64,000 nucleotides of DNA from Azovibrio restrictus DSM 23866 (GCF_000429665.1 NZ_AUCH01000018.1:25317-89316), one strand, 5' to 3'. Counted from the stretch's first letter, positions 30,675 through 47,200 are shown. The notes: generated by a model not told the origin, from the sequence alone. A program made the numbers and translations.

Positions 30675-30728
30675 TTTTCTTTCCTTTCTTGGGCAGTGCT
30701 CCTGCCGGATTATTCGTTTTGCATTCTA

Positions 30729-30790
30729 CTGGTGGACACGGCGGGACTCGAACCCGCAGTAAGCCGCCATCGGGCATTACTCCGATGTGC
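30729..30790 (-). ncRNA. tRNA 3'-half-like module (T-arm + acceptor 3' strand + encoded CCA) in the rtcB leader
   Basis: The minus strand reads ...GCGGG-TTCGAGT-CCCGC-CGTGTCC-A-CCA, ending 55 nt upstream of the rtcB ATG. No matching 5' acceptor strand was found. A preceding hairpin (CATCGG-AGTAATGC-CCGATG) has an 8-nt loop. Confidence 0.5.
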
Positions 30791-30950
30791 GGGGAAGCTT
30801 TAAACGCGCGCCATTCGCGGAACCTTACGCAGACCCCGGAACTGCATCCTCAAATACCGCTCCCCGCTGAAGCTTTCGGTTTTACCCTTCACCGGTCTCG
30901 TCACTCGTTTACCGGCCGCTCGCCGTTTCGCGTTCGTGCCCTTGTTCGTT

Positions 30951-31370
30951 TCAATGCCCGTTGGCCAAAGCAGCCAGACGCGCCTGTTTTCTCAACAACC
31001 CGGCCTGTGACACCTGCCGGGCCAATTCCTTGCGTTGCCGTTCGCGCTGGCGGCAGGGACGGCAGCGTTTGGCGATGGCGTCTTGCGAACCGCCGATGGT
31101 TTCGTACCACCAGCGTTGCTGCTCGGCGGTCCACACGCAGGCCGCAGCGCAATCGCAGCAGGTGAAGGGCCTATCGACGTAGTAGCCGCGCAGCGCGAAG
31201 GGGCTCAGGCCATAGCTGTTATTGGCCATCAGCTTGCTGTAATCCACCGGCACGACAGGGCCGGGCGGCGGTGCAACAACCCGGTTGGCCGCTCGCGCTG
31301 CCAGGCGATGCAGCCGCCGCGCCGCCTTGATCTCGGCGCGGCGCTGTTTTCCGCTTTTGTAGCCTTCCAT
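30951..31370 (-). CDS. Hypothetical Cys-rich basic protein (139 aa)
   Basis: A clean ORF with Cys clusters (CCDCAAAC, CRPC). It sits between the SPFH gene and rtcB. Confidence 0.5.
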   Translation of the reverse strand: MEGYKSGKQRRAEIKAARRLHRLAARAANRVVAPPPGPVVPVDYSKLMANNSYGLSPFALRGYYVDRPFTCCDCAAACVWTAEQQRWWYETIGGSQDAIAKRCRPCRQRERQRKELARQVSQAGLLRKQARLAALANGH

Positions 31371-31432
31371 GTTCGTTTCTCCTTGCTATAGGCTGTTCGC
31401 CCTGCGCTCAGCTGCCCGCTCCAGCCAGGCAG

Positions 31433-32569: not shown

Positions 32570-32831
32570 TTTGTTCTCCCTTGCGTCGATGAAATCTGCC
32601 GGCTCACGCCGGTCCGGCGGATGCCCGGATTGGCCCTGGTGGGGGGGCTTGGGCTGCCGGGCGTCGGCACTGGCTACGGCCCGGACCTGTGGTCCGGACT
32701 GTGCGTCGCCTGACGCCCGGCAGCTTCACCCTGCCGCCAAGGCAGACCCGGGCACCGGGCCGGACCGGCGGCGGGTGCTTGCGCATGCCGCAGCCGGCGG
32801 GGTACTGCTGTAAGGCTGTCGTGTGAGGACA

Positions 32832-32905
32832 GTTTTGGAGCGGGATTCGAACCCGCGACACACCGTTGATGAGACGGTTGCTCTACCCGATTGAGCTATC
32901 CAATG
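32832..32905 (-). tRNA. tRNA-Met(CAU)-like gene, probably defective (pseudo-tRNA / tRNA mimic)
   Basis: The minus strand reads CATTGGA-TA-GCTC-AATCGGGTA-GAGC-A-ACCGT-CTCATCA-ACGGT-GTGTC-GCGGG-TTCGAAT-CCCGC-TCCAAAA. The D, anticodon and T arms are canonical with anticodon CAT. Position 37 is C, acceptor base pairs 1:72 and 2:71 are mismatched (C:A, A:A), and no CCA is encoded. Confidence 0.55.
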
Positions 32906-33030
32906 GAGGGATGACCGGGAATCGAACCCGGGCGAGCCACCAGGCACCCCGACATCGCTTTCCTGCAGCTGCGGCATACGGCGGAATGACCGGAAACTTC
33001 CTGATTCCACCGCACCGGCGGGGTTGGACC
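32904..33030 (-). ncRNA. tRNA-like module (T-arm CCGGG-TTCGATT-CCCGG + acceptor 3' TCATCCC-T-CCA) preceded by a stable hairpin (GGTGGAAT...ATTCCGCC); abuts the tRNA-Met-like element
   Basis: Read from the minus strand. No complementary 5' acceptor strand is present. The direct-repeat segments CCGGTCAT(T/C)CC occur twice. Confidence 0.45.
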
Positions 33031-33074
33031 CCCTGTCCCGTGGGCTTTGCTGCAAGTGGGCGACGGCTACTCTA

Positions 33075-33091
33075 TTGCGAGAGGCGTGCCA
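33075..33091 (-). promoter_or_regulatory. Candidate sigma54 promoter (TGGCAC-GCCTC-TCGCA on minus) for the tRNA-like-SPFH-rtcB-...-rtcA operon, presumably RtcR-dependent
   Basis: The plus strand TGCGAGAGGCGTGCCA is the reverse complement of TGGCACgcctcTCGCA. The -24 GG and -12 GC are correctly spaced, with one mismatch to TTGC. It lies between divergent rtcR and the operon. Confidence 0.55.
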
Positions 33092-33366
33092 GCTAGACGG
33101 TTGTGGCGCAAGTCATTGAATTAACGGGCTTGTGCTGGCGGACTGGGAGATGTGGTCTGCTAATTAACGATTTATTGTTATAGTTGTTTATAAATTTATC
33201 TATGCACTGAAGTGGCGGCTTGCTTTTTTGAGCCGCTGAAAAACCAACCCCTCCCGGCCTCCCCTTGTCAGGGGAGGAGCATCCGTCGCCACGCGATGGC
33301 ACTTCCCCCTGACAAGGGGGCTGGGGGGCCACCTTTTTTCCGGATGACCGTGAGATTCCCCTCCCC

Positions 33367-34953
33367 ATGAAAAAAACCGTCGTCATCGGCTTTGTCGGCA
33401 TCCAGCTCGACTATGCCGGCAAGGGCAGCGCCCGCTGGGAGAAGTGGCGGCCCACCGTCGCCCTGTGCCAGCAGGAAGACCTGGTCGTGCATAGGCTGGA
33501 AGTGATCCACGACGCGCGCAGCCGCAGCCTGGCCGAGCGCATCGGCAACGACGTCGCCCGCATTTCGCCGGAGACCGAGTTCAAGCGGCTGGAAATGGAA
33601 CTGCGCGACCCCTGGGATTTCGAGGAGGTGTACACCGCTCTGCACGACCTAGCGCGCAGCTATCCCTTCGATACCGAGAACGAGGATTACCTGATCCACA
33701 TCACCACGGGCACCCACGTGGCGCAGATCTGCTGGTTCCTGCTCGCCGAGGCGCACTACCTGCCGGCGCGCCTGTTGCAGACCTCGCCGCCGCGCAAGAA
33801 GGAGATCGCCAATTCGGTCGGCAGCTACGAGATCATCGACCTGGACCTGTCCCGCTACGACCGCATCGCCCAGCGTTTCGCCCGGGAGCGCGACGACAAC
33901 CTGTCCTTCCTCAAATCCGGCATCGCCACGCGCAACCCGGCGTTCAACCGGATGATCGAGCAGATCGAACAGGTCGCCGGCCGTTCGCGCGCGCCGATGC
34001 TGCTGGTCGGCCCGACCGGCGCCGGCAAGTCCTTCCTCGCCCGCCGCGTTTTTGAACTGAAACGCCAGCGCCAGCAACTGAAAGGCCGTTTCATCGAAGT
34101 GAACTGCGCCACCCTGCGCGGCGACTCGGCCATGTCCACCCTCTTCGGCCACAGCAAGGGCGCCTTTACCGGCGCGCAACAGGAACGGCCCGGCTTGCTT
34201 CGTTCCGCCGATGGCGGCCTGCTCTTTCTCGACGAAATCGGCGAACTCGGCCTCGACGAACAGGCCATGCTGCTCAAAGCCATCGAGGAAAAACGCTTCT
34301 TCCCCTTCGGCAGCGACCAGGAGGCAAGCAGCGACTTCCAGCTCATCGCCGGCACCCACCGCGACCTGCGCCAGTGGGTGCGCCAGGGCAAGTTCCGCGA
34401 AGACCTCTACGCCCGCATCAACCTGTGGACCTTCGACCTGCCCGGCCTCGCCGGCCGCCCGGAGGACATCGAACCCAACCTCGACTACGAGCTGGAACGC
34501 TTCGCCGCCGAACACGGCCAGCAGGTGCGTTTCAATGTCGAAGCAAGGCGCCGCTACCTGGCCTTCGCCACCTCACAGGCCGCGCGTTGGCACGGCAACT
34601 TCCGCGAATTGGGCGCTTCCCTCACCCGCCTCGCCACGCTGGCTACCGCCGGGCGCATCACGGAAAGCGACGTCGCCGACGAAATCGCCCGCCTCACCGC
34701 CACCTGGGCCGAAGAACCCACGGCCGACGCCTGCGCCCAGGTGCTTGGCGGCGAAGCGGACCAGCTCGACCTCTTCGACCGCAGCCAGTTGAATGCCGTC
34801 ATCGCCGTCTGCCGCGCCAGCCCCAGCCTGTCGGAGGCAGGGCGGCGGCTGTTTGCGGTATCGCGGGTGGAAAAGAAACAGAGCAACGACGCCGACCGGC
34901 TGCGCAAATACCTGGCCCGCTTCGGGCTTAGCTGGGGGGCGCTGCGGGGCTAG
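33367..34953 (+). CDS. rtcR: Sigma54-dependent transcriptional regulator RtcR (CARF sensor domain + AAA+ + HTH)
   Basis: The N-terminus MKKTVVIGFVGIQLDYAG is an RtcR/CARF signature. The AAA+ region has Walker A GPTGAGKS and the GAFTGA motif. Length is 528 aa. The gene is divergent from the rtc operon. Confidence 0.9.
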   Translation: MKKTVVIGFVGIQLDYAGKGSARWEKWRPTVALCQQEDLVVHRLEVIHDARSRSLAERIGNDVARISPETEFKRLEMELRDPWDFEEVYTALHDLARSYPFDTENEDYLIHITTGTHVAQICWFLLAEAHYLPARLLQTSPPRKKEIANSVGSYEIIDLDLSRYDRIAQRFARERDDNLSFLKSGIATRNPAFNRMIEQIEQVAGRSRAPMLLVGPTGAGKSFLARRVFELKRQRQQLKGRFIEVNCATLRGDSAMSTLFGHSKGAFTGAQQERPGLLRSADGGLLFLDEIGELGLDEQAMLLKAIEEKRFFPFGSDQEASSDFQLIAGTHRDLRQWVRQGKFREDLYARINLWTFDLPGLAGRPEDIEPNLDYELERFAAEHGQQVRFNVEARRRYLAFATSQAARWHGNFRELGASLTRLATLATAGRITESDVADEIARLTATWAEEPTADACAQVLGGEADQLDLFDRSQLNAVIAVCRASPSLSEAGRRLFAVSRVEKKQSNDADRLRKYLARFGLSWGALRG

Positions 34954-35027: not shown

Positions 35028-35954
35028 TCAGGCTTCGCCCTTGAGGGCCAGGAATTCGTCGATCAGCCGGGCCAGGACTTCCTCTTCATCCCCGTCGCTG
35101 ACTCCCAGGAGCTGGGCCACCTGGCGCACCTTGCCCGGGTTCACCCGGCGTCGCACCACGGCCGGTTCCGGCGTGGCGCTTTCCCAGGGCGGGGGCTCGC
35201 TGGCCCCGGGGGCCGCCGCCGGGCTGTCGGCCGGGGTCGGGGCTGCAGGGCGGGCCGGGGCCGCATATTCAGCATCCGCTTCCGCCTGGGGCGGCTTGCG
35301 GGCCCGCTTCACCCCGGCCCGGACCAGCACCTGTTCCACCTCCTGGCGAGGCAGCTTTTCCCCTTCCGGCAGCTGGGCGATCCGTTCTATCAGTTCCCGG
35401 GCCTGGCCTTCATCCTTGCGGGCCAGCTTTTCCAGCTGCAGGGCGGTGCTGGTGCTGCCCAGCCGGCCCGTTTCCAGCAGGGCGTCCACTTCCGGGGAGA
35501 GGCGGGCGGCGGCCGTGGCCTGCTGCAGCCAGGCTCCCTTGCGGCCGAAATGTCCGGCGGCGGCCTCCTGGTCCTCGTAGCGGCGGGCGATGCGCGCGAT
35601 GGCCCGGGCCATGTCCCGGGGTTCCAGAGGCTGACGCACCCCCTGGCCCATGTTCTCGAACACCTGGAGTTCCAGGGCCTCTTCCGCCGAGCAGGAATGC
35701 ACCAGGGCCGGCACGGTCGCCAGCCCGGCTTCCCGGGCGGCCCGCCAGCGCCGCTCCCCGACGATCAGCCGGTACTGGCCGTTGGCGTCGGCAGGCTGCA
35801 CCAGCAGCGGATGGATCACCCCCAGGCGCTGCAGGGAGTTGACCAGGCCCTTGAGTTCTTCCGCGTCCAGCCGCCGCCGGGCATGGGCCGGGTCGGGAAT
35901 GATGCGCTCCACCGGAATGTGCAGGAATTCACGCTGGGAAATTTGCTCGGCCAT
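35028..35954 (-). CDS. ParB/Sulfiredoxin-like nuclease-domain protein with Ala/Pro-rich C-terminal region
   Basis: The ParB N-terminal-domain region reads IPVERIIPDPAHARRRLD...LIVGERRWRAAREAGLATVPALV. No partner parA is present. Confidence 0.7.
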   Translation of the reverse strand: MAEQISQREFLHIPVERIIPDPAHARRRLDAEELKGLVNSLQRLGVIHPLLVQPADANGQYRLIVGERRWRAAREAGLATVPALVHSCSAEEALELQVFENMGQGVRQPLEPRDMARAIARIARRYEDQEAAAGHFGRKGAWLQQATAAARLSPEVDALLETGRLGSTSTALQLEKLARKDEGQARELIERIAQLPEGEKLPRQEVEQVLVRAGVKRARKPPQAEADAEYAAPARPAAPTPADSPAAAPGASEPPPWESATPEPAVVRRRVNPGKVRQVAQLLGVSDGDEEEVLARLIDEFLALKGEA

Positions 35955-36139
35955 GGCCCCTCCAACAGTTCAGTCAGCCCCGCCGCCGGCGGGGAAAGGG
36001 GCCGGATGTTCCCCGTTTTCCGGGGGATTTTCAAGCTGCGGGATCGGCCCTGTTGCGGGACGGGGGCCCTGCCCAGGCCCTGGAGGGCTTGCCCTCCAGG
36101 GCCGCGGCTGGGCAGTTCGGGCCAGGCTTGTCCAGGATT

Positions 36140-39100
36140 TCAGATGCCGCCGCCGCTACGCCAGGCCTGGGTCAGTTTGGCCAGGGCCTGTTGGGTGGGG
36201 CCGGAAGGCCAGAGGGTGGCCAGCCAGTCCAGGTGCGCCGCCTGGGTTTCCAGGGTCTGGCGTTCCCGCAGGGCGGCGGCCTGAGCCTGGTAACGGCGGG
36301 CCAGGGCGGTGCCGAGGGCGGGATCTTCCAGGGCGGCGGGGCTGCCCGGGTGCAGCAGGCTGTGGCCCAGGGCGCTGACCCGCTCGGCTTCCAGCATCAG
36401 GAGGGCGTCACTGGAGTCCTGAGCCAGCTCCTGCAGCCAGACCTGGCCCTGGGCCTGCCATTCGGCCAGGGCCGCCGCCTGGCCCCGGGCGGCGAGGATC
36501 AGGGTGGCATCCAGGGCGGCCAGCAGGGCTGGCCCGTGGCAGGATTCGCCGCCGTCCCGGGCTAGGGTGCTGGCGCTCAGGCAGCTGGCGCGCATCTGCT
36601 CCAGGCTCTTCTCGGGATTGCGCCGGCTGTGCAGCCGGGCCAGGCTGAGGCAGGCCAGCCCCTGGGCCAGCCGGTAGCGGCGTCCGGCGTTTTCTCCCAG
36701 GGCCAGGGCGAGTTCCAGCCGCTTCAGGCCCTGTTCCACCAGGGCCAGCCCCTCCGCTTTGCCCTGCCGGAGTTCAGCCAGGCCCTGGAGGGTTTCCAGG
36801 GCGGCCAGGGCATCCACCATGTCCAGCCGGGCGCTGCCGTCGGCCTGGAGCAGGGCGGCCCGGTAATGGCTGATGGCCGGGGCCCAGCCGGGCTCTCCCA
36901 GTTCGCTCCAGGCAGCGGCCAGGCTGCCACGGATGGCGCCGTACTGGAGGAAGCGGCCTCGGGCCGCGTTTTCCAGGGCGTTCAGGCGGGCCTGGTAGCG
37001 CTCCCGGGCCGGGGCGTCGGTGAGGGTGAGCTGGCTGCGGGCGTGCAGCTGCAGCAGGTCGGTGTGGAACTGGGCCGGGTGCAGGTAGTCGGGCAGGCGT
37101 TCCTCGGCCCGGGGGTCGGGGGCCAGCTGGTAACGTTCATCCCCGTAGGCCTGGTAGGCGCCCCAGGTGTTGCAGTCCGGGTGCCGGGCATAGGTGGCCT
37201 GGCGGGCCTGCAGCACCGCGTCCCCCAGGGGGTGACCGGCCAGCATGGCGCTGTGGAAAGTGGTGGCGAAGGTTTCCGCAGCCTGGTCATCCACGGCCCA
37301 GCCGGCGGCCACTACCGCCTTGCAGCCCATTTCGATGAATTCGGTGGCCAGATTGGCCGCCAGCCTGCCCCAGCGGGGCCGGGCGTCGCCCGCCATGCTG
37401 CCCAGGTGGCAGCAGTTGATGAACACCAGTTCCGGCACCCGGCGCAGCTTGCTGATCTGGGCCGTGGTGAGATACACGCCGGCTTCCATCACCAGCCCGG
37501 TCTGGCCGGCGCCGGCCTCCGCCACCTGGCCGTGGGCGGCCAGGTGCATGACCTGGTATTCCCCGTCGAACAGGCGCGCCAGGATGTCCTGGCTGTCGGC
37601 CTGGTAGAGGGGCATGCAGCTGTAGGCCTGGGCTTCGTACAGCCCGGCCACGGCCCGGGCCTCCCGCTGGGCCCCGGGCAGTTCGACCAGGCCGGAACGG
37701 GTGTCGCCCAGGACCAGCAGCCGGCGGTTGCGCACCACCCGCACCTTGTTGCGCCCGTGGGGGCTGGCCAGCTGGCGGATCAGGCCGACCCGGCAGGCCA
37801 GGGGCTGGCCTCCGGCTTCCGGGCGCATCAGTTCCCAGGGATAGACCGCCGCCTTGTCGTCCACCCCCAGGATCAGGCCGCGCAGGTCGGCGATGGCCGC
37901 CTTGAGGCTGTTGGGGATCATCAGCTCGAACAGGGCCCGGGACAGGCCGGGCTGGTCCCGGGTGCTGCCGGTGGCGGCGCGCAGCAGGCCGTCCACCGCC
38001 TGGCGCTGATCGGGTTCCTCATCCACCCCGTTCCTGGCCTGGCTGGTGATCAGGGTGAAGCGCAGGGCCTCGCCCTGGGCGCCGGCGGTGACGTGCACCC
38101 GCGGCCAATGCTGGCTGCGGTCCTGGTCCTGGGCTTCCCCGGGGCCCCGGAAGGCGCCGGCGGCCCGGGCCAGGCTGCCGTCGTAGCTGAGGCAGTCCCG
38201 GTAGCGTTCTTCCCGCACCAGTTCCTGCAGGCTGCGGGCGGCGGCGATGGCCCGGGCTTCCTCCTCCTCGAACAGTTCCAGGCTGGCGATGGGGGCCAGG
38301 CCCGGGGTCTCCTGCAGGCGCCGGTTGGCTTCCCGCAGGGCGTCGGCCAGGCTGCGCAGGGCCAGGCTGAGTCCCAGGCCCCCGTAACCGCTGCCCACCA
38401 GCAGGGTGGCCAGGGACACCGGTTCGGGGGCGGAGGGCGAGCGCTGGGCGAGATTGCGCACGTACTCCAGCAGGCCCTGGGTCAGCAGCCGGGTGAGGCG
38501 GCCGGGGGTGAGATCACCCAGGCTGCCCAGCCCCAGCACCACGGCCCCGGGAAAGCGGCTGCCCGCCGGGGCCGGGAACACCAGCACCTCTCCGGCCCAG
38601 CCGTTGAAGCGGCCCAGGTTGCGGGCCTGCTCCAGGCCGCCTCCCAGCTGCTTGTTTACGAAGCCGACGCTGCCGCGCAGGGATTCATGGCTGTAGGCGC
38701 CCACCAGCACCGGGCTGCCGGCGTTGGCGAGGCTGCCGTGGGTGATGCCGATACGGGCGGGTTCGGCTTCTGCCGCCGCTGTCGGCTGGCCGGGGGCGGC
38801 GCCTCCCAGGGCGGCGGCTTCCACCTCTTCCGGGCTGGGGTAGATGCGCGGCGGCGCCAGGGGGGCAGGCTGGAATCCGCCGGGGCCCGCCGCGCGGCTG
38901 GCCGGGGGCGTGCCGGGCAGGGGGCAGCGGCCGGTCTGCAGCAGTTGCAGGTAGGCGGCAAAGCAGTCCTGGGCCCGCATCAGGTCCCCGTGGGCGGCCG
39001 GGGCATACCAGACCGGCACTCCGGCCGGGATGCCGGTGGCCCAGGCCACCCGGCCGTCACCCGCCTGGCTCCAGCGGATTTCCATCTGGCCGTCGTGACA

Positions 39101-41446
39101 GCGCAGGGCCACGGGGGTGGGGGCCTGGCCGGCCACGTAGGCGCAGCAGGCCGGGTCCAGGGGCGCGGCCGCCAGCTGTTCCACCTGCTGCCGGGCGGCG
39201 GCCAGGGCTTCTGCCGGGGGCGGGCGCCAGCCGTCGCCGGCGCCCGGGGCGGTTGCAAAGTCTGCCGCCCGCTGCCGTTCCCGGTTTTCCCGGTCTTCCC
39301 CGGCCCAGGCGGCCCAGGTGGCCGGATCGAAATAATCCACCCCGTCCGGGGCCTTGCCGTCGGCCTGGGGCCAGGGTAGCAGCTCCAGAACCCCGGGGTA
39401 GCGGCTGACGATCTCCAGGAATTCCCCCATGTCGTGGCGCCAGTCCAGCCACTGCTCGATCTGCTGGATGAAGCGGTCCCGGCCGGTGAGCACGGCGGCC
39501 ATGCCGTGGGAGCCCTGGTTGGGGGTGCCGAACTGCACCAGGCGGCTGCCCGGAATGGCCTTGAATTCCTCCCAGCGGCCGGCCAGGGCCAGCCGGGCCA
39601 CCAGCCCGCCCATGGAGTGGGCCATGATGCCCAGGGGCTGGCGGCGGGCCCGGGCGTCGTCCATGGCCTGCTCCAGGACCGGGGTGAATGCCGCCGCCGC
39701 CGCGGCAATGGAGAGGCGCCAGTCATAGGCCCAGGGGCGGACCTCATGGCTGGCGCCCAGGTAGGCGGCCAGGGCGGCGTAGCTCCTGTCCAGCCAGCCC
39801 CGGGGGCTGACCTGGGGCGCGTCGATGGCGAGACGGTTCATGTGTCCGGCGATCAGTTCCACCGGGTTGAACCAGATGTGCTCGTCGGCCAGGGCCAGGT
39901 GGCTGCCCATGATGCCGGGCAGCATCAGGACGATGGGGGCGTCGGCCCGGGGCGCGGGCCGTCGGACATCCCGGGCGATGGGGTCGGTGGAGGGGCCGCT
40001 CAGGGCGGTGAAGCTGTGGTTGTCCCCGGCCAGGGCCTGGAGCAGGGGCTGGTAGCTTTCCTGCCGCTCGAAATAGGTGAAGTGGGTGACATCCGGGCCG
40101 CGCACGGATTTCTGCCAGATGCCCGGGCGGCGGCGGGCGCCGCCGCTCATGGAAGGGGTGTTCACCACCAGGTCCGTGTGGCCGCCGTAGAAGCTTTCCA
40201 GGAGGCAGTCCCCGAGCCAGGTGAGCAGGCTCTTGCCCTGGAAATCCCCGGCGATCACGTGCAGGGGCATGTCCAGCTCCACCCGGGGATCGTTGAGCAG
40301 GGCCACCAGGGGCGAGTCGGGCATCATTGCCTCCAGGCCCGGCAGCACCCGGGCATCGGTGCGTTCCTTGACCACCGCCAGGAGGAAGTTCTTCAGCAGC
40401 CGGTAACCCTGGGACAGGGGCTCCAGCAGGGGGATGGATTTGCCCGCCAGCTCCAGGCCGCCTCCCAGCAGGTTGAGCATGACGCTGGCCCAGCGGTCCA
40501 GGCGCCCCGAGGCCAGGGTGGTGCCCCGGGCCGTGGCGGCCACCCGCACGAAACGCTCCACCCGGATCCCCTTGTCCTGCAGCAGGCGGCTGAGTTCTTC
40601 CAGCCGGGCCGCGTCTTCCGCGTGGCCCGGGCGCCCGGTCTGCTGGGCCTGTTCCAGGAAGCCCTGGATGTCGCTGCTCGAGTAGGGGACCTCCCCGAGC
40701 CGGTTGGCCCGGGCCAGGAGTTCCCCCACCATGCCGCCCCGGGAGTGGCTGACCAGGTGCAGCCGGGCCCCAGCCGGCAGGGTGCGGGCCAGGGCCAGGG
40801 CGTTGCAGATGGGGCTTTCGCTCAGGCTGCGGTGCTCGAAGCCGTAGATGCGCTCCCCGTAGGCGGCAGCCAGGGTCGCCCGGGCGCTGTTGTCCCAGAG
40901 TTTGCCGAAACTGCCCCGGGTGGAGGAGGCGGTGCCGTGGATGAACAGCAGGGAGGGGGCGTCGGCGGCCGGCATGGCCGTCAGGGGGTAGAGCTGCCAG
41001 CGCTGGTTGTCGAGCCGGTACAGGCCCTGGCGGTTTTCCAGGGCGTAGTCCTGGAAGGCGCCAGCGGCGGCCAGGGCCGTCATGCCCGCCGGGCCCTGGC
41101 GGAACACCCGCAGGGATTTCAAGAGCCAGCGGCCCAGTCCGTCCCGGGCCGCGCCGGCCAGCAGGCCGCGCAGCTCCGGCGCCAGGGCGGCCTGGAGCAG
41201 GGCCGGGCCCCCGTCCCGGTCGGCCTGCCGGCCCAGATAGCGTTCCGCGTCGGCGGCGGCCACCAGGATGCGGGTGCCGTCCTCCAGCTCCAGCTCCAGC
41301 ACCGTGTCCGGCGCCAGTTCCAGGGGCGGGGGAGCCGTTCCCCCGTCCCGGGCATAGGCGCCCGTAAGAATCGACTGGCCCTCCCAGTCTCCGTCGCGGA
41401 TGGGCTGGGGCGGGGTGGGCAGTTGCAGCAGGATGGGATCGGTCAT
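36140..41446 (-). CDS. Giant (1768 aa) multidomain protein: two alpha/beta-hydrolase (lipase/esterase-like GxSxG) modules + CHAT caspase-like protease domain + C-terminal TPR-like helical repeats
   Basis: GxSxG nucleophile elbows occur at LVSHSRGGMVG and IMAHSMGGLVARL. The CHAT His/Cys dyad region reads VMHLAAHGQV ... ELVFINCCHLGSMAG. No P-loop NTPase motif was seen. The antisense ORFs 36629..39379 and 39434..42334 are spurious. Confidence 0.8.
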   Translation of the reverse strand: MTDPILLQLPTPPQPIRDGDWEGQSILTGAYARDGGTAPPPLELAPDTVLELELEDGTRILVAAADAERYLGRQADRDGGPALLQAALAPELRGLLAGAARDGLGRWLLKSLRVFRQGPAGMTALAAAGAFQDYALENRQGLYRLDNQRWQLYPLTAMPAADAPSLLFIHGTASSTRGSFGKLWDNSARATLAAAYGERIYGFEHRSLSESPICNALALARTLPAGARLHLVSHSRGGMVGELLARANRLGEVPYSSSDIQGFLEQAQQTGRPGHAEDAARLEELSRLLQDKGIRVERFVRVAATARGTTLASGRLDRWASVMLNLLGGGLELAGKSIPLLEPLSQGYRLLKNFLLAVVKERTDARVLPGLEAMMPDSPLVALLNDPRVELDMPLHVIAGDFQGKSLLTWLGDCLLESFYGGHTDLVVNTPSMSGGARRRPGIWQKSVRGPDVTHFTYFERQESYQPLLQALAGDNHSFTALSGPSTDPIARDVRRPAPRADAPIVLMLPGIMGSHLALADEHIWFNPVELIAGHMNRLAIDAPQVSPRGWLDRSYAALAAYLGASHEVRPWAYDWRLSIAAAAAAFTPVLEQAMDDARARRQPLGIMAHSMGGLVARLALAGRWEEFKAIPGSRLVQFGTPNQGSHGMAAVLTGRDRFIQQIEQWLDWRHDMGEFLEIVSRYPGVLELLPWPQADGKAPDGVDYFDPATWAAWAGEDRENRERQRAADFATAPGAGDGWRPPPAEALAAARQQVEQLAAAPLDPACCAYVAGQAPTPVALRCHDGQMEIRWSQAGDGRVAWATGIPAGVPVWYAPAAHGDLMRAQDCFAAYLQLLQTGRCPLPGTPPASRAAGPGGFQPAPLAPPRIYPSPEEVEAAALGGAAPGQPTAAAEAEPARIGITHGSLANAGSPVLVGAYSHESLRGSVGFVNKQLGGGLEQARNLGRFNGWAGEVLVFPAPAGSRFPGAVVLGLGSLGDLTPGRLTRLLTQGLLEYVRNLAQRSPSAPEPVSLATLLVGSGYGGLGLSLALRSLADALREANRRLQETPGLAPIASLELFEEEEARAIAAARSLQELVREERYRDCLSYDGSLARAAGAFRGPGEAQDQDRSQHWPRVHVTAGAQGEALRFTLITSQARNGVDEEPDQRQAVDGLLRAATGSTRDQPGLSRALFELMIPNSLKAAIADLRGLILGVDDKAAVYPWELMRPEAGGQPLACRVGLIRQLASPHGRNKVRVVRNRRLLVLGDTRSGLVELPGAQREARAVAGLYEAQAYSCMPLYQADSQDILARLFDGEYQVMHLAAHGQVAEAGAGQTGLVMEAGVYLTTAQISKLRRVPELVFINCCHLGSMAGDARPRWGRLAANLATEFIEMGCKAVVAAGWAVDDQAAETFATTFHSAMLAGHPLGDAVLQARQATYARHPDCNTWGAYQAYGDERYQLAPDPRAEERLPDYLHPAQFHTDLLQLHARSQLTLTDAPARERYQARLNALENAARGRFLQYGAIRGSLAAAWSELGEPGWAPAISHYRAALLQADGSARLDMVDALAALETLQGLAELRQGKAEGLALVEQGLKRLELALALGENAGRRYRLAQGLACLSLARLHSRRNPEKSLEQMRASCLSASTLARDGGESCHGPALLAALDATLILAARGQAAALAEWQAQGQVWLQELAQDSSDALLMLEAERVSALGHSLLHPGSPAALEDPALGTALARRYQAQAAALRERQTLETQAAHLDWLATLWPSGPTQQALAKLTQAWRSGGGI

Positions 41447-41495
41447 GGCAGCCTCCGGGGCGGGGATGTGGGGGGAATGGATAGGGGGCCCGGGC

Positions 41496-42326
41496 TTACA
41501 GGCGGGCGGCCTGGACGTGCATCCAGTCGTAGTTGCGGCTGCGGCCCAGGCTCACCCAGCCTTCCGCCTCCCAGCACTGCCACCAGGGCTCGTACTCGGG
41601 GCGGGCGAAGCGGGCCCGCTGGCTGTTCCAGCGCAGCTGGTTGTGATCCGGGTCGAAATCCAGGGCGATGCCCCAGGCGTGGGTGGAAAGGGCGCTGCCG
41701 CCCCGCTTGTCGCGCATCTGGTAGCAGCCGCCGAACAGGTCCAGGCCCAGTTCTCCCAGCTGGCCGATGCCGTAGTGGTCCAGCACCCGGGCCAGCACCC
41801 GGCCCAGGCTGGGGGCCACCCGGGCGTGGCAGCGCAGGCGTTCCACCCGGGTGGCCGGGTCCCAGGCCAGGCGCAGGGGATAGGGCAGAGGGCAGGACAC
41901 CAGCCCGGCTTCCCCGGGCTCCCCGTAGCAGGCGCGCAGCTCGGCGGAACGTTCCAGGGGCCAGCCGTTGGGGTTGGGGGGCACGCGCTCCTGGCGCCAG
42001 GGGGCGGGCGGCTGGCCGTGGGCCTGCAGATAGGCCAGCTGCTCCGCCCCGTGACGGCTCTGGGGCCCCCAGAGGCCGTCCAGGGGACCAGGGTCGAAAC
42101 CCGCCGCCCGGCACTGGAGCTGCAGGGCCAGCTGGGCCTGGCGCCCGGCCGGCCAGCTGCGCCAGTCTTCTTGCGTGTCGGGGGCGGCCTGTTGCAGGAA
42201 GGCCTGCACGGCGTTACGGGTTTGCGGGCCCAGGCACCCGTCGATGTCGGGCAGGTGCAGGGCGGTTTGCAGGGTGCGCAGGGCCGGGGCTTGCATGGCG
42301 GGCTCCATTCCATGGGAATCAGACAC
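41496..42326 (-). CDS. Peptidoglycan-binding domain + M15-family (VanY/endolysin-like) zinc peptidase
   Basis: The N-terminal PG_binding_1-like segment is LHLPDIDGCLGPQTRNAVQAFL. The C-terminal LAS-type metallopeptidase motifs are SALSTHAWGIALDFD and HVQ. Confidence 0.65.
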   Translation of the reverse strand: MSDSHGMEPAMQAPALRTLQTALHLPDIDGCLGPQTRNAVQAFLQQAAPDTQEDWRSWPAGRQAQLALQLQCRAAGFDPGPLDGLWGPQSRHGAEQLAYLQAHGQPPAPWRQERVPPNPNGWPLERSAELRACYGEPGEAGLVSCPLPYPLRLAWDPATRVERLRCHARVAPSLGRVLARVLDHYGIGQLGELGLDLFGGCYQMRDKRGGSALSTHAWGIALDFDPDHNQLRWNSQRARFARPEYEPWWQCWEAEGWVSLGRSRNYDWMHVQAARL

Positions 42327-42470: not shown

Positions 42471-43709
42471 ATGCGCCTCCTGCACACCTCCGACTGGCAC
42501 CTGGGCCAGCATTTCATGGGCAAGACCCGTCAGGCCGAACATCAGGCCCTGATCGGCTGGCTGCTGGAGCAGGTGGAAGCCCGGCAGGTGGATGCGGTGC
42601 TGATCGCCGGCGACCTGTTCGATACCGGCACGCCCCCCAGCTATGCCCGGGAGCTCTACAACCAGCTGGTGGTGAGCCTGCACGCCCTCCGGGTGCCGCT
42701 GCTGCTCCTGGCCGGCAACCATGATTCCGTCGCCACCCTGAACGAAAGCCGGGAGCTGCTGGCCCGGCTGGGGGCCACGGTGATCACCACGGCGGGCGCC
42801 GATCCGGCCGACCAGCTCGTGCTCCTGCCCGGGCGGGACGGAAATCCTGGCTGCCTGGTGGGGGCGGTGCCCTTCATTCGCCCCCGGGACCTGCTCCAGA
42901 GCCAGGCCGGGCAGAGCGGCGAAGACAAGCAGCGCTCCCTGCAGAGCGCCATCCAGGCCCATTACGCCGCCGTCCACGAGGCCCTGGTGGAACGCCAGCA
43001 GGAGCTGGAAACCAGCCTGGGCCGGCGCCTGCCTTTGGTGCTGACCGGCCACCTGACCACCGTGGGCGCCAGCGCCAGCGAATCGGTGCGGGAAATCTAC
43101 GTGGGCGCCCTGGAAGCTTTTCCCACCAGCGCTTTTCCTCCGGCCGACTACATCGCCCTGGGCCATATCCACCGGCCCCAGAAGGTGGGCGGCCTGGAGC
43201 TCATCCGCTACAGCGGTTCGCCCCTGCCCCTCAGTTTCGACGAGGCCGGCCAGCAGAAGGAAATGCTGCTGGTGGACCTGGAGGCCGCTGGCCTGGCGGC
43301 GGTGACGCCCCTGCCCGTGCCCCGCTTCCAGGGGCTGGCGGCGATCCGGGGCAGCCTGGACAGTCTCGCCGGCCCCATCGGCGCCGCCGCCGCCCTGGGC
43401 TCGCCGGAACGGCCCACCTGGCTGGAGGTGACGGTGAACGGCGACGACTGGCTGGCCGACCTGCCCGCCCGGCTGGAACAACTGACGGCCGGCTGGCCGG
43501 TGGACATCCTGCGCATCCGCCGGGCCCGGGGCAACGAGGCCGCCCGGCTCGCCGCCAGTCCGGGCCTCACCCTGGAAGAACTGAGTCCGGACGAGGTCTT
43601 CGCCCGCCGCCTGGCCCAGGAGGACCTGGACGAGCCCCAGCGCGAGGCGCTGACCGGGCTGTACCGGCACATCCTGGCGGGCATGGCCGACCCGGCCCCT
43701 GGTCCATGA
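42471..43709 (+). CDS. sbcD: Exonuclease SbcCD nuclease subunit SbcD (Mre11-like)
   Basis: The calcineurin-like phosphoesterase motifs MRLLHTSDWHLG, AGDLFD and GNHD are present. Confidence 0.9.
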   Translation: MRLLHTSDWHLGQHFMGKTRQAEHQALIGWLLEQVEARQVDAVLIAGDLFDTGTPPSYARELYNQLVVSLHALRVPLLLLAGNHDSVATLNESRELLARLGATVITTAGADPADQLVLLPGRDGNPGCLVGAVPFIRPRDLLQSQAGQSGEDKQRSLQSAIQAHYAAVHEALVERQQELETSLGRRLPLVLTGHLTTVGASASESVREIYVGALEAFPTSAFPPADYIALGHIHRPQKVGGLELIRYSGSPLPLSFDEAGQQKEMLLVDLEAAGLAAVTPLPVPRFQGLAAIRGSLDSLAGPIGAAAALGSPERPTWLEVTVNGDDWLADLPARLEQLTAGWPVDILRIRRARGNEAARLAASPGLTLEELSPDEVFARRLAQEDLDEPQREALTGLYRHILAGMADPAPGP

Positions 43710-44296
43710 GCCCCATGCAGATCATCCTGATGCGCCATGGCCGGCCCCTGGGCCCCGGCCTCAGATGGCTGAGCGCCCGGGCCTTCGGCGCCTGGGTGGA
43801 TGCCTATGACGCGGCGCCCATCGATCCCGCCTGTCCGCCGCCCGCCGTAGCCCTCCGGCTGGCCCGGCAGGCCGCTTGGGTGCAGTGCAGCAGCCTGCCC
43901 CGTTCCCTTTCCTCGGCGGCCGCCCTGGGGGTTCGGCCCGATGCCGGGGATGCCGCTTTCCGGGAGCTGGACATGCCCCGTGCAGACTGGCGTTTTCCCC
44001 CTCTGCCCGTGGCCTGCTGGTTGCTGCTGTTCCGGCTGGCCTGGGTGGCGGGCTACCGTCGTCAGGCCGAATCCTTTGCCGCGGCCCGGGACCGGGCTGC
44101 TGCCTGCGCCGCCGGGCTGATCCAGCTGGCCGGCCAGCAGGGCAGCGTGCTTTTTGTCGGGCACGGGGCCCTGAACTGGTTCATCGGCCGGGCCCTGCGC
44201 CGGGCGGGCTGGCAGTCTTCCGGCGGCGCCCGGCGCCACTGGGAGGCCGCCGTGTTCAGCCGGGGCGAACCCGTTTTTCCGGAGCATGCCGGATGA
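43706..44296 (+). CDS. Histidine phosphatase (phosphoglycerate-mutase-like) family protein inserted between sbcD and sbcC
   Basis: The RHG catalytic motif (IILMRHGRP) is present. Its start overlaps the sbcD stop (ATGA) and its stop overlaps the sbcC start (ATGA). Confidence 0.65.
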   Translation: MSPMQIILMRHGRPLGPGLRWLSARAFGAWVDAYDAAPIDPACPPPAVALRLARQAAWVQCSSLPRSLSSAAALGVRPDAGDAAFRELDMPRADWRFPPLPVACWLLLFRLAWVAGYRRQAESFAAARDRAAACAAGLIQLAGQQGSVLFVGHGALNWFIGRALRRAGWQSSGGARRHWEAAVFSRGEPVFPEHAG

Positions 44297-47200
44297 AGAT
44301 CCTCCGTCTGCGCCTGAAGAACCTCAACTCCCTCAAGGGGGAGTGGAGCATAGACTTCACCCGGCCGCCCTTCGTGGATAACGGCCTGTTTGCCATCACC
44401 GGGCCCACCGGGGCGGGCAAGTCCACCCTGCTGGACGCCATCTGCCTCGCCCTCTACCACCAGACGCCGCGCCTGGAGCGGATTTCCAGCAGCGACAACG
44501 GCATCATGACCCGGCACACGGCCGACTGTCTGGCCGAGGTGGAATTCGAGGTGAAAGGGTCGGCCTATCGGGCCTTCTGGAGCCAGCGCCGGGCCCGGGA
44601 CAAGGCGGATGGCGCCCTGCAGGCCGCCAAGGTGGAACTGGCCGAGCTGGCCCCCGATGGCAGCGGCACCATCCTTTCCAGCCAGGCCGCGGACAAGCTG
44701 AAGCGCATCGCGGAGATCACCGGCCTCGACTTTCCCCGGTTCACCAAGTCCATGCTGCTGGCCCAGGGCGGTTTTGCCGCCTTCCTGAACGCCAGCGCCA
44801 ACGAGCGGGCCGAGCTCCTGGAGGAGCTCACCGGCAGCGAGATCTACGGGGAAATCTCCCGCCGGGTCTTCGAGCAGGCCCGGGCGGCCCGTCAGGTGCT
44901 GGAGCAGCTCCAGGCCCGGGCCGAGGGGGTGGAACTGCTGAGCGAAGCCCAGCGGGCGGAAATGGCCGCCCGGATGGCCGGTCTGGAAAGCCAGCTGGCG
45001 GCCTGTCAGGCCCGGATCGCCACGCTCCAGGCCCAGCGCCAGTGGCGCCTGGACCTAGCCGGGAGCGAGCAGGAGGTCAGGGCTGCCGAAACCCGGCTGG
45101 CCGAGGCCGCCGCAGCCCTGGCTGAGATCGTCCCTGAGCTCCAGCGCCTGGCGGTGGATGAACCGGCCCAGGCCCTGCAGGCGCCCCATCTGGCCTGGCA
45201 GCAGGCGGCCGCCCTGGGCCGCCAGAGTGCCGCCGGGCTGGCCCAGCTGCGCCAGGAGCTGCAGCGTCTCCAGGCGGAGCAGTACGGCTGCCACCAGGAA
45301 GCCAGGGCCCTGGCGACCTTCCTGGCCGGGCAGGCGCAGGCCGCCCTGGGGCAGCTGGAGCAGGAGCTCCGGACCCTGGACGAATTCCGGGCCGCCCATC
45401 CCCAGCAGGCCCAGCTGGGGGAAAAACTGGGGGAATGGAAATCCCGCCTCGACGAAGCCCGGCGCCTGGAGGAGGAAAGCGCTGCCGGGCAGCGGCAGTT
45501 GCAGCAGTTGGCTGCCGAAATCGCCGCCCAGCAGGGGCGCCTGACGGCCCAGGCCCAGGCGGTCGGCACTGCCGGAGAGCTGGCTGCCCGGGCCGAGGCC
45601 AGGCTGCAGCAACTGTTGCAGGAGCAGGCGCAGCGCCTGGCCGGGCAAAGCCTGCCCGGGCTGCGGGCCGCCTGGCAGCAGGCCCAGACCCACCTCGGGC
45701 AGCAGCGGCAGCTTGCCGATCTGGCCCGCCAGCGGCGCGAGTTGAGCGCCCGCCACCGGGCCCGGCTCGAGCAGCAGCAGCGCTTGCAGACCCGGATGGC
45801 CGGCCAGGAGCAGGCCCTGGGCGAACTGCGCCGGGCCTATGAAAACCTCAACAGCCAAGTCCTGGACAAGCGCCGCCTGCTGGAGCAGGAAAAACTGATC
45901 CAGAGCCTGGAGGCCCACCGCCACCAGCTCCAGCCGGGCCAGCCCTGTCCCCTGTGCGGCGCCACCGGGCATCCAGCCATCGCCGCCTACCAGGCCCTCG
46001 ACCTGTCCGCCACCGCCAACGCCCTGGGCGAGAAGGAGGCGGAGCTCAAGGCCCTGACGGAAAAGGGCCAGCAGGCCCGGGCCGAGCAGGCCGCCAGCCG
46101 CGCCACCCTGGAGGCCGGGGAGAAGGAAGCCCTGGCCCTGGTGGCGGAACTGACCCGCCTCGCCGGGCTCTGGCAGGAAGCCCTGGAGGCGTTGGCGTCC
46201 GGGGACGGGTTTTCATCTTCATCCGATGTTGTGGCAGCAGCCGCCTGGGAGGATGAAAGCGCCCTGGCCGCGGCCTGCCAGCGGGCTGAACAGGAACTGC
46301 AGCGCCTGGCCCAGGACCTGCAAGCTGCCGAACAGGGGGAGGCGGCCATCCAGGCCGCCCGCCAGCAGACCGCCCAGGCGCAGCAGGCCCTGGAAGCCGC
46401 CCGGCACCAGCAGGGCTTGCTGCAGCAGCAGGGCCAAGCCCAGGAGGTTCGCCAGGGGGAGTTGCAGCAGGCCCTGGCCGCCCGCCAGCAGGCCCGGGCC
46501 GATCTGCTCGGCCAGCTCACTGCCGCCATCCAGGCCGCCGGGCACGGGGCCCCGGACCTGTCGTCGCCCACTGCTGCTGCCGACTGGCTGGCGGCCCGGG
46601 AAGCCGAGTGGCGCTTGTGGGAGCAGCGGCAGCTCCGCCGCCAGGAGCTGGCCGGCGCCCTGATCCGCCAGCAGAGCCAGGCGGAGGCCGCCCGGGCTGC
46701 GGCTGCCCTGTGGGAGCAGCGCGGCCGGGAACTGGCCCTTGCCCCCGAGGGGGCGACGGCCGCTCCCGACCTTGATCCGGCCGATGGGGCCGAGGCCGCC
46801 GCCCGGCTGGCCCGCTGTGAACAAGACAGCGAGCGCCTGGACCGGGAGCTGGCGGCCCTGGCCGGGCGCCAGAGCCAACTGGCTGCCGACCTGGCCCGCC
46901 AGGAACTGGCCGAGCAGGCATGCGCCGCCGCCTGGCAGGCCGCCCTGCACGACAGTCCCTTCCCCGATCAGGCCGCCTGGCAGGCGGCCCTGCTTTCCGA
47001 GGACGAGCGCCAGCGCCTGGGGCAGCTGAGTCAGGTGCGGCAGCAGGCCCGGCAGCAGGCCGAAGCCGTGCTCCAGGCCGCCCGGGACAAATTACAGAAG
47101 CTGCAGGCGCAGCTCTCCAGTGCCGGGGAACCGCCGGCCCTGATCGAGCTGGAAGCCCTGCTGGCCCAACAGGACAGCCAGCTGCGCAGCCACAGCGAAC

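Follow-up and report, generated by a model that had tools for sequence, protein, structure and literature searches.

The locus and its genes

A stretch of 64,000 nt from Azovibrio restrictus DSM 23866, which as a whole we call the window, carries three consecutive genes on its minus strand, encoding an M15 peptidase, a giant protein and a ParB homologue. An earlier note on this DNA proposed that they form a three-gene defence or toxin set. This raises two questions, namely which of these genes belong together and what a protein combining two lipase-like hydrolases with a caspase-like protease would do for the cell that makes it.

The three genes exist as the note described them (Table 1), co-directional and with the GC3 pattern of real genes (the genome is ~67% GC). 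A gap of 49 nt separates the M15 gene from the giant gene, sbcD adjoins the M15 gene on the side away from the giant gene, and the giant gene sits between the stress/repair operons rtc and sbcCD. These immediate neighbours are not classical defence-island genes. Because the M15 protein's homologues begin at the position of its Met11, the shorter of the two gene calls is more likely than the one that begins at an alternative GTG at 42326.

Table 1. Features of the three-gene region, in window coordinates.
Feature	Coordinates	Strand	Basis or remark
parB gene	35028-35954	-	ORF, 308 aa
GC-rich hairpin	36065..36123	-	17 nt past the giant stop codon
Giant gene	36140-41446 (stop codon included)	-	ORF, 1768 aa
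N-terminal conserved, mostly beta-strand domain, residues 1-160	40967..41446	-	Conserved columns in alignment A1
Alpha/beta hydrolase 1, DUF7379, residues ~161-495	39962..40966	-	Pfam DUF7379 6.4e-34
Alpha/beta hydrolase 2, LCAT/lysosomal phospholipase A2-like, residues ~496-845	38912..39961	-	Pfam, Foldseek
Pro/Ala-rich linker, residues 846-892	38771-38911	-	Precedes the macro-fold domain
Macro-fold domain, Peptidase_M17_N type, residues ~893-1095	38162..38770	-	Pfam Peptidase_M17_N 1e-5
CHAT caspase-like protease, residues ~1096-1440	37127..38161	-	Pfam CHAT 7e-29
C-terminal TPR tail, ASK1 central-regulatory-region / TPR-S type, residues ~1441-1768	36143..37126	-	All-helical
M15 gene, as first called	41496-42326	-	ORF, 276 aa
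M15 (LAS-type zinc) peptidase, N-terminal peptidoglycan-binding domain	41496..42296	-	Corrected start, 266 aa

Three catalytic centres in one chain

The motifs from which the giant protein had been interpreted were all found: HSRGG at residues 234-238 (SHSRGG with the preceding Ser), HSMGG at 610-614 (within AHSMGG), HLAAHG at 1301-1306 and FINCCHLG at 1342-1349. Pfam supports the hydrolases and the CHAT domain, and the TPR-like tail is indeed a helical TPR. We also agree that the protein has neither an NTPase domain, for which there was no match (two GxxxxGK[ST] strings, both within hydrolase 1, are chance occurrences), nor a hydrophobic, signal-peptide-like stretch at its N-terminus.

The two hydrolases are related to each other (hhalign probability 89, E 2e-6). 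Across 20 sequences, H234, S235, the R-G-G that follows, D425 and H455 of the first are invariant, with a putative triad of S235-D425-H455; in the second, whose putative triad is S611-D797-H819, residues H610, D797 and H819 likewise never vary, and S611 is kept in at least 90%. Hydrolase 2 lies just over the Pfam LCAT gathering score of 21 (22.4 bits, 8e-5), and its best Foldseek matches, obtained with a low-confidence model, are LPLA2 (4x92) and LCAT (E 1.6e-5, TMt ~0.5). The nucleophile elbow and Ser-Asp-His triad of lipases are thus recognizable twice, and both domains are predicted to act on lipids. The fold and the His-Cys dyad (H1305 and C1346) place the third enzyme among CHAT, clan CD caspase-like proteases, and this catalytic centre is likewise intact and invariant in the 20 homologues.

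The macro-like domain is an addition to the earlier description, and its sequence match is solely to the M17_N branch, which is not known to bind ADP-ribose. The tail of the window protein falls below Pfam significance for TPR-S and is weakly matched by a profile of stand-alone TPR-S proteins (hhalign E 0.014). Residues 1-160 have no Pfam match and form strands in an AF2 model of low confidence; overall, the structure models are moderate for the C-terminal half (pLDDT 69) and poor for the N-terminal half (pLDDT 55).

A large family with a patchy distribution

Matches to the N-terminal half of the giant protein at E<=1e-30 amount to at least 1038 clusters at 50% identity, from at least 557 species, and full-length homologues keep a length of ~1750-1925 aa. 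PADLOC has no entry for this family and we found none in the literature; it is a large, uncharacterised family. Its members are scattered over Proteobacteria, Desulfobacterota, Acidobacteriota, Nitrospirota, Verrucomicrobiota and Actinomycetota, and this sporadic spread, together with ~50% identity between Beta- and Deltaproteobacteria, implies horizontal transfer. The gene is also carried on plasmids; in one case, a mobilizable Azotobacter plasmid, its neighbours include a type I R-M system, a recombinase and IS elements.

Database names such as 'lecithin:cholesterol acyltransferase' and 'pimeloyl-ACP methyl ester carboxylesterase', and the chromosomal context in the window, would suit a housekeeping enzyme that processes lipids or proteins and whose neighbour is there by chance. 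The sporadic, horizontally transferred distribution and the plasmid carriage speak against this, as do the immune-type partners described below and the absence of the gene from the sampled genome neighbourhoods of the close relatives Azospira, Quatrionicoccus and Oryzomicrobium. Nowhere did we observe the giant gene kept in single copy and in conserved synteny throughout an order, as a core gene would be, and we consider a housekeeping role very improbable.

Immune-type partners in related loci

We sampled the neighbourhoods of 80 related species-level loci, counting a partner if it lay within 10 kb of the giant gene. TIR genes occur in 27 loci, caspases in 25 and TPR-S genes in 18, and 44 loci have at least one of the three (29 of the 51 loci whose flanks both extend for 5 kb or more). 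These partners are mostly adjacent, co-directional and a few hundred bases from the giant gene; TIR-NB-ARC-TPR genes recur as well. PADLOC labels the relatives' neighbours with its 'caspase' model and as ThsB-like TIR, and the caspase is GSU0716-like (PDB 3bij). Thoeris-like and caspase-based immune systems are built from this set of genes. Because the giant is patchy across phyla, travels on plasmids and has such neighbours in 44 of 80 loci, it looks like a conflict or abortive-infection effector and not a housekeeping protein. To this extent the original proposal of a defence function survives, without its three-gene set and the role it gave to ParB.

The remaining 36 loci, Janthinobacterium and Zoogloea among them, have the giant gene stand-alone amid housekeeping genes. 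In the window, TIR HMMs built from the relatives' neighbours found no match in the 64 kb, no caspase or TPR-S partner was found there either, and PADLOC, which the note had suggested running, assigned none of the three proteins to a known defence model. The window holds a minimal, two-gene version (M15 and giant) of the locus, with TIR and caspase missing.

These stand-alone chromosomal copies are compatible with a regulated cell-death or lysis device that serves social or developmental roles (floc, sheath or biofilm turnover, stress autolysis) and answers to endogenous stress, not to phage. Aggregating or filamentous bacteria are frequent among the hosts (Zoogloea, Sphaerotilus, Crenothrix, Accumulibacter, Thauera, Desulfobulbus, Janthinobacterium), the window copy lies between two stress/repair operons, and Kaur et al. 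(PMC7159879, PMC8195603) associate caspase/TIR systems with a multicellular way of life. However, ThsB-like TIR and caspase partners have so far been shown experimentally in phage defence, and the plasmid copy neighbours an R-M system. We regard a social role as unlikely; it overlaps in mechanism with the immune effector that we favour, the trigger being the sole difference.

ParB stands outside the unit

The ParB-like protein had been taken for a ParB/Srx-fold nuclease. It is instead of the canonical ParB/Spo0J/Noc type, with a GERRxRA box and an HTH region, Pfam ParB_N at 5.5e-24, TIGR00180 at 3.9e-27 over residues 8-189, and matches to solved ParB and Noc structures at ~1e-18; it thus has the predicted CTP-binding N-domain and HTH of ParABS systems. 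The lack of parA was read correctly, as the ParA-type Walker A motif KGGxGK[ST] is absent from all frames of the 64 kb.

The genes are adjacent and co-directional, and their order is kept in contig L081, which is the one other place where the full arrangement repeats and is a 99% identical copy from the same species. Otherwise, the predicted co-occurrence fails. No ParB homologue lies near the giant gene in any of the 80 related loci, and ParB orthologues, which occur across Rhodocyclaceae, stand alone (50-60% identity) in three differing housekeeping contexts in Azospira, Quatrionicoccus and Oryzomicrobium, with no adjacent parA. The 185-nt spacer between the giant gene and parB contains a hairpin of -47.1 kcal/mol (z -4.1 vs shuffles); it has no T-tail and a consensus terminator scan did not flag it, and it is likely a terminator or transcript-end element that parts the two genes. 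Given the 0 of 80 loci, the stand-alone orthologues and this strong hairpin, we judge parB to be an unrelated, lineage-conserved orphan gene that lies downstream by chance, outside the module. A module of M15, giant and a ParB-like nuclease is close to refuted, and we give it almost no credence.

A facultative endolysin partner

The M15 protein is, by sequence, a full-length homologue of phage endolysins. It matches phrog_17001 'endolysin' at 1.2e-80 over residues 16-266 and shares 40-47% identity with proteins that 167 phage records annotate as endolysins and L-Ala-D-Glu peptidases. Its motifs STHAWGIALD and DWMH fit the zinc motifs SxHxxGxAxD and DxxH, H206, D213 and H260, the residues of zinc binding and catalysis, do not vary among 16 homologues, and Peptidase_M15_4 and PG_binding_1 are weak Pfam matches. 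There is no signal peptide. The gene is not set in a phage lysis cassette or prophage, its neighbours being sbcD and the giant gene.

The association of the M15 gene with the giant gene is genuine but optional. M15 occurs in 4 of the 80 species-level loci and is missing from >90% of giant loci, and the two genes are found together in about ten independent loci (L023, L048, L064, L070, L087, L088, L145, L172, the window and its near-identical copy L081); in three of these (the window, L088 and L172) the giant gene follows M15 directly. Most members of the M15 family have no giant gene nearby (e.g. L089). A second, unrelated endolysin family, Peptidase_M15_3 (phrog_894), lies directly downstream of the giant gene in L057, L070 and L073.

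Combinations of a lipase with a murein hydrolase are typical of interbacterial effectors. That pairing, and the size and patchy distribution of the giant, could suggest an offensive antibacterial toxin set delivered to competitors, like T6SS Tle/Tae-type effectors. We find this quite improbable: the giant has no signal peptide, no T6SS, T7SS or CDI genes and no recurrent small immunity-type gene were seen among immediate neighbours, the recurrent partners (TIR, caspase, TIR-NB-ARC-TPR, TPR-S) are cytoplasmic immune-type genes, and a C-terminal sensor-type TPR with CHAT better suits regulated self-activation.

A proposed model for the giant protein

We propose that the giant is a sensor-gated protease-phospholipase suicide effector of the TIR/caspase-linked conflict class, assisted by an endolysin and encoded with it in a two-gene M15-giant operon, a reading to which we give a probability of roughly 0.5. 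We infer its steps from the identity of the domains and from the genes that surround the giant. First, the TPR-S-type repeats, possibly with the macro-fold domain, would receive an activating signal, probably an NAD-derived nucleotide where a TIR gene adjoins; as the window has no TIR, the signal there would have its source in another part of the genome, or the protein would sense it directly. The signal would then turn on the CHAT protease, probably through oligomerisation as in SAVED-CHAT. Candidate targets of CHAT are the giant's own Pro/Ala-rich linker and, in relatives, the adjacent GSU0716-type caspase, and cleavage would free the two serine hydrolases, one of them LCAT/phospholipase-A2-like, to attack membrane lipids. 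An M15 protein without a signal peptide needs the membrane to be permeabilised to reach murein; once the inner membrane is breached, the endolysin would do so and lyse the cell, the phospholipases standing in for the holin of a phage endolysin.

More tentatively, the family may represent a new, widespread single-chain immune effector in which a TPR-S/macro-like sensor gates CHAT and frees two fused phospholipases. In some lineages, that of the window included, phage endolysins of two independent families would have been captured, and the parts together would make an abortive-infection device that achieves 'lysis from within' without a holin, whether or not a dedicated TIR signal generator serves it. 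We hold this broader hypothesis to be possible, and doubtful as yet.

Comparison with known systems

The proposed M15-giant operon resembles a phage holin-endolysin cassette, with a signal-peptide-less endolysin and a predicted membrane-damaging partner. It differs in that no holin, spanin or other phage gene is present among the window neighbours, and the membrane breach would be enzymatic, by phospholipase.

The analogy with Csx29 of type III-E Craspase, drawn in the earlier note, holds insofar as TPR and CHAT share one protein and the protease would be gated by a sensing event. It is otherwise loose: Csx29 has an N-terminal TPR followed by CHAT, whereas the giant has the reverse order, and neither a CRISPR array in the window nor cas genes among its neighbours were found. 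The solved structure nearest to the giant's CHAT is SAVED-CHAT, not Csx29. In Haliangium, a type III-B CRISPR/CBASS hybrid uses SAVED-CHAT to activate PCaspase in a proteolytic cascade (bioRxiv 10.1101/2023.06.23.546230). The giant differs in that its putative sensor is TPR-S or macro-like and not SAVED, in that its chain includes two lipase domains, and in having neither a cyclase nor a CRISPR context; the GSU0716-like caspase partner of relatives is missing from the window.

VMAP ternary (vWA-MoxR) conflict systems also couple a caspase-superfamily peptidase to an alpha/beta hydrolase; their caspase and hydrolase genes are obligately paired, and the products are predicted to serve socially living bacteria as effectors of suicide or immunity (Kaur et al. 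2020, PMC7159879). In the giant, by contrast, peptidase and hydrolases are fused in one polypeptide without an NTPase nearby, and vWA, MoxR and VMAP genes are neither among the window neighbours nor in the 25 commonest Pfam families of immediate neighbours (63 and 65 loci).

Thoeris systems offer a further comparison. The giant, which joins two lipases, CHAT and putative sensors in ~1800 aa and of which we found no published description, differs from them in its architecture and in a macro-like domain of the M17_N branch whose ligand binding is putative, and no adjacent TIR (ThsB) gene was found within the 64 kb of the window. In type IV Thoeris a caspase-like effector, ThsE, is activated by a TIR signal, in type II His-ADPR is bound by the Macro domain of the effector, and in type VIII the TPR domain of ThsI is the presumed cADPR sensor, following a prediction of Burroughs & Aravind 2020 (bioRxiv 10.64898/2025.12.03.692087). 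Relatives of the giant have ThsB-like TIR and caspase genes beside them at the frequencies given above, and its macro-fold and TPR-S/ASK1-type tail belong to the two types of domain with which Thoeris effectors are known or predicted to sense TIR-made signals. By analogy, the giant and Thoeris may share an effector logic, the killing of the cell by indiscriminate enzymes.

Architecture and spread of the giant protein

From its N- to its C-terminus the giant carries a beta-rich domain (residues 1-160), two hydrolases (1 and 2), the second of them LCAT/PLA2-like, a linker rich in Pro and Ala (residues 846-892), a macro-like domain, a CHAT domain and a TPR-S-type tail. Pfam assigns the alpha/beta hydrolase family DUF7379 (6e-34), an LCAT-like hydrolase to residues 569-655 (slightly over the gathering score) and CHAT to 1169-1436 (7e-29). 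A Peptidase_M17_N match at 915-988 (32 bits, cut-off 23.4) is the sole sequence match of the macro-like third domain. Across a 20-sequence alignment, invariant residues occur in hydrolase 1 (H234-S235-R-G-G, D425 and H455), in hydrolase 2 (H610, D797 and H819, with S611 nearly invariant at >=90%) and in CHAT (H1305-G1306 and C1346). Every motif that the earlier note had quoted for this protein is found in its translation, and the statement that it has no NTPase was borne out: only two chance GxxxxGK[ST] strings are present, both within hydrolase 1. AlphaFold2, run on a shallow 9-sequence alignment, gave a usable model of the C-terminal half (pLDDT 69) and a poor one of the N-terminal half (pLDDT 55), for which the best Foldseek matches were lysosomal phospholipase A2 and LCAT (E 1.6e-5, TMt ~0.5). 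By sequence, no solved homologues were found except designed TPR proteins.

The family is large and its architecture is rigid. A word-indexed search with the giant returned more than 1200 matches, the best 120 of which are mostly ~1780-1820 aa long and 48-57% identical over 82-100% of the query (mostly >90%). Searching exhaustively with HMMER and the first 880 residues recovered 1038 cluster representatives (50% identity) at E<=1e-30, of which the best 150 are mostly 1750-1925 aa. When each GTDB species is represented by one genome, relatives are encoded on at least 557 stretches, in hosts that include Beta-, Gamma-, Alpha- and Deltaproteobacteria/Desulfobacterota, Acidobacteriota, Nitrospirota, Verrucomicrobiota and Acidimicrobiia. 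This patchy distribution at ~50% identity implies horizontal transfer. Family members are also plasmid-borne: on a mobilizable plasmid of Azotobacter chroococcum, a stand-alone giant (55% identical) adjoins a type I R-M operon that is broken up by a PD-(D/E)XK nuclease gene and two Fic genes, together with a recombinase and three IS elements (IS701, IS630 and IS5 copies). One homologue, P0112 (1966 aa, on a 9.1-kb JGI contig, named 'lysozyme family protein' at its source), carries ~200 extra N-terminal residues in which Pfam identified no family; this extension may be a fused module that binds or cleaves murein, which would agree with a link to endolysins.

TPR-S was reportedly defined by Burroughs & Aravind in 2020 (J Bacteriol). 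That paper aside, the literature searched holds no relevant description of the giant family, DUF7379, PF24096 or TPR-S, although the architecture may already be mentioned there. It is plausible that the giant represents a widespread effector family, which in this lineage has an unusual partner, an endolysin.

Features of the window (GC ~67%) and of related loci
Sequence	Feature	Position	Strand	Remarks
Window	Repeat, 196-bp unit x3.0	3686-4270		84% matches; low-GC intergenic gap between two plus-strand genes
Window	Extended rtc RNA-repair locus	24194-34953		GC lower (62-64%); RtcR (CARF + sigma54 AAA+), Band7/SPFH, RtcB, 465-aa HEAT-repeat protein, RlaP (pol-beta-type nucleotidyltransferase), RtcA, DUF695-like protein
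Window	tRNA-Met (CAT)	32832-32905	minus	within the rtc locus; flanked by rtcR and the Band7/SPFH gene
Window	ParB ORF	35028-35954	minus	308 aa; clear GC3 signature
Window	Giant ORF	36140-41446	minus	1768 aa; clear GC3 signature
Window	M15 ORF	41496-42326	minus	276 aa; clear GC3 signature
Window	Small ORF	43706-44296		196 aa; weak His_Phos_1 match; spans the sbcD-sbcC junction
Window	Longest sbcC ORF	43876-47805		1309 aa; TTG start
Window	Stretch with DUF1266 and NERD-UvrD genes	47861-51035		60-63% GC; just past sbcC
Window	NERD-UvrD helicase	49212-51035	plus
L170	NERD-UvrD helicase	6237-8033		46% identical to that of the window; directly downstream of giant homologue P0007, then small MGE-like genes
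L057	Peptidase_M15_3 gene	15348-15953		directly downstream of giant, co-directional
L070	Peptidase_M15_3 gene	15494-16060		directly downstream of giant, co-directional
L073	Peptidase_M15_3 gene	15356-15940		directly downstream of giant, co-directional
L087	Locus with tandem giant paralogues	1-9369		2056 aa (cut by contig end) and 1803 aa
L173	Azotobacter plasmid locus (NZ_CP066312.1)	28270-51141		stand-alone giant

Genomic context of the window trio

The trio is flanked on one side by rtcR and the rtc RNA-repair operon (Band7, RtcB, HEAT-repeat protein, RlaP, RtcA), and on the other by a divergent sbcD-sbcC pair followed by DUF1266 and NERD-UvrD helicase genes. The tRNA-Met (CAT) gene in the rtc locus may encode a genuine elongator or initiator tRNA, or else a tRNA-like RNA connected with RNA repair. 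Gene order is unchanged on a Logan contig (run SRR25213504) whose giant is 99% identical, but because it comes from the same species it is not independent evidence. The longest sbcC ORF overlaps the 196-aa ORF, and the Logan gene call is 1170 aa, so that the start of sbcC is uncertain. The NERD-UvrD helicase, seen near the giant in only two loci (the window and L170), may be the remnant of a common island. Matches to RtcR by tblastn lie near the giant in four other loci (L034, L040, L044 and L047), and all four were taken as chance: they span just ~240-270 aa at 33-39% identity, and two of them, immediately downstream of the giant, are NtrC-type response regulators (Response_reg, Sigma54_activat, HTH_8).

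Immune-type genes often accompany giant relatives

We fetched 80 loci of giant relatives with flanks of up to 10 kb, clustered the flanking ORFs, identified the clusters by Pfam and PADLOC, and took the counts with HMMs derived from these clusters. Within 10 kb of the giant, a TIR gene is found in 27 of the 80 loci, a Peptidase_C14 caspase in 25 and a separate TPR-S protein in 18, with at least one of the three in 44 (29 of the 51 loci having at least 5 kb on both flanks). Most partner genes share the strand of the giant gene. The caspase, a close homologue of GSU0716 (PDB 3bij, E 1.5e-88), usually lies immediately upstream in the same direction, with a median distance of ~250 bp. Some loci have TIR partners only (for example L005, L006, L049 and L080) and others caspase partners only (for example L007, L012, L051 and L078); TIR-NB-ARC-TPR proteins are likewise common near giant relatives. 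These associations indicate that the giant is probably a conflict or cell-death effector. An offensive toxin is less likely, since the partners are cytoplasmic immune-type genes and neither secretion nor immunity genes are found among the immediate neighbours.

The giant stands alone amid unrelated genes in 36 of the 80 loci, including all those from Janthinobacterium and Zoogloea. The window is of this kind, as no TIR, caspase or TPR-S gene lies within its 64 kb. PADLOC, which the earlier note had recommended, recognized none of the three window proteins as part of a known defence model, its sole match being a chance one to BovA (0.03).

ParB is very unlikely to be a partner, and M15 is a facultative neighbour

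The earlier note had proposed that M15, giant and ParB form a three-gene defence or toxin module, and had named absence of co-occurrence in other genomes as evidence against it. Its ParB part fell: no ParB homologue was found in any of the 80 giant loci by tblastn and iterated HMM searches. The protein is a canonical ParB/Spo0J/Noc-type protein (ParB_N/TIGR00180 match) with homologues of ~305 aa at 50-61% identity across Rhodocyclaceae, in Azospira, Dechloromonas, Quatrionicoccus, Oryzomicrobium and Propionivibrio. In three genomes its orthologue (L082, L084 and L085, 50-60% identity) stands alone in three differing housekeeping contexts, with no parA, M15 or CHAT gene nearby. ParB is thus rejected as a module partner, on the 0/80 count and the unrelated contexts of its orthologues; it is a red herring whose membership is highly improbable, and the three-gene model is essentially refuted. 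In the window, the 185-nt spacer between ParB and giant holds a hairpin (36065-36123, -47 kcal/mol, z -4.1). This orphan, always without parA and in a neighbourhood that differs per genome, may be a ParB paralogue with a role in chromosome organisation or in regulation.

The M15 part of the proposal stood in part, in that M15 recurs in independent giant loci, facultatively. Pfam gives M15 only a weak Peptidase_M15_4 and PG_binding_1 match, whereas PHROG 17001 ('endolysin') matches it over its full length (1.2e-80), and annotated endolysins and L-Ala-D-Glu peptidases from 167 phage records share 40-47% identity with it. Its homologues begin at Met11 and are 266-271 aa long, with H206, D213 and H260 invariant. 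Because the peptidoglycan-binding domain starts at the N-terminus, the protein is without a signal peptide.

Four of the 80 species-level giant loci contain M15 (L023, L064, L070 and, more distantly, L048). Elsewhere it lies directly upstream of the giant in L172 (28-nt gap) and in L088, where the order is TIR, TIR-TPR, M15, giant (30-nt gap after M15) and TPR-S; L145 runs caspase, giant, M15, TPR-S; and in L087 the giant pair is followed by a small TIR-like gene (146 aa), an M15 homologue and another TIR gene. Several further matches to M15 and to the giant come from contigs of equal length, which suggests additional pairs on common contigs. Since both genes are rare, about ten to a dozen independent juxtapositions within 3 kb are not chance. 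Surveyed from the M15 side, 80 metagenome loci, many on contigs too short to judge, gave a giant only in L145 and a caspase in L148, and most family members (for example in Rheinheimera) have no giant neighbour. M15 is therefore mostly independent of the giant gene, and the link is real but facultative.

A second, sequence-unrelated endolysin-type family (Peptidase_M15_3, phrog_894, ~190 aa) adjoins the giant in three loci, one of which, L070, carries both families. That endolysins were recruited convergently from two families speaks for a functional connection with murein degradation. On balance, we lean towards M15 being a functional partner of the giant, and we give the joint reading, an effector giant with M15 as its partner, a probability of about 0.5.

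A proposed mechanism

Several known systems suggest how such a protein might act. In type IV Thoeris, NAD-derived signals from TIR activate a caspase-like effector (bioRxiv 10.64898/2025.12.03.692087; cf. 10.1101/2024.10.24.620036). In type II, TIR-made signals bind a Macro domain, and in type VIII a TPR domain, predicted by Burroughs & Aravind to be a TIR-signal sensor, is the presumed signal reader (both bioRxiv 10.64898/2025.12.03.692087). Binding of its ligand makes SAVED-CHAT oligomerise, and it activates a second caspase (10.1101/2023.06.23.546230). In VMAP conflict systems, an alpha/beta hydrolase always accompanies caspase-superfamily domains, and effectors that attack peptidoglycan are also known from such systems (PMC7159879).

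The giant fuses all these functions, and we therefore propose a chain from signal through CHAT and lipases to endolysin-mediated lysis. We infer that the TPR-S and/or macro-like domains would sense a signal and activate CHAT, which would cleave cellular proteins, the partner caspase or the giant itself. The membrane would then come under attack from phospholipase and esterase activity, and the endolysin, where present, would escape to the murein and lyse the cell, the lipases standing in for a holin. The window system is a minimal M15-giant operon. A stress or social autolysis device, alike in mechanism and different in trigger, is also plausible, as the hosts are floc-forming and filamentous.

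If the effector reading with its proposed chain holds, the scale is at least 1000 clusters at 50% identity in hundreds of species, and protease-gated lipases within a ~200-kDa polypeptide would be a new effector architecture in the TIR/caspase branch of bacterial immunity. The host would be using a phage endolysin to upset the timing of the phage itself. A two-gene construct and the TIR-containing relatives would suit testing whether the TPR-S and macro-like domains read NAD-derived signals.

Relation to known systems

Nearest among known systems are Thoeris (types II, IV and VIII), SAVED-CHAT/PCaspase, and the VMAP pairs of caspase and hydrolase; Csx29, which the earlier note had named as an example from conflict systems, is a more distant analogy than any of these. 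The window locus lacks a TIR and so is not Thoeris; lacking vWA and MoxR, it is not a VMAP system either. Nor is it Craspase: no CRISPR repeat array was found in the window and there is no gRAMP. If correct, our reading would make the giant a bridge between type IV Thoeris, SAVED-CHAT/PCaspase and the pairing of caspase with alpha/beta-hydrolase predicted by Kaur et al.
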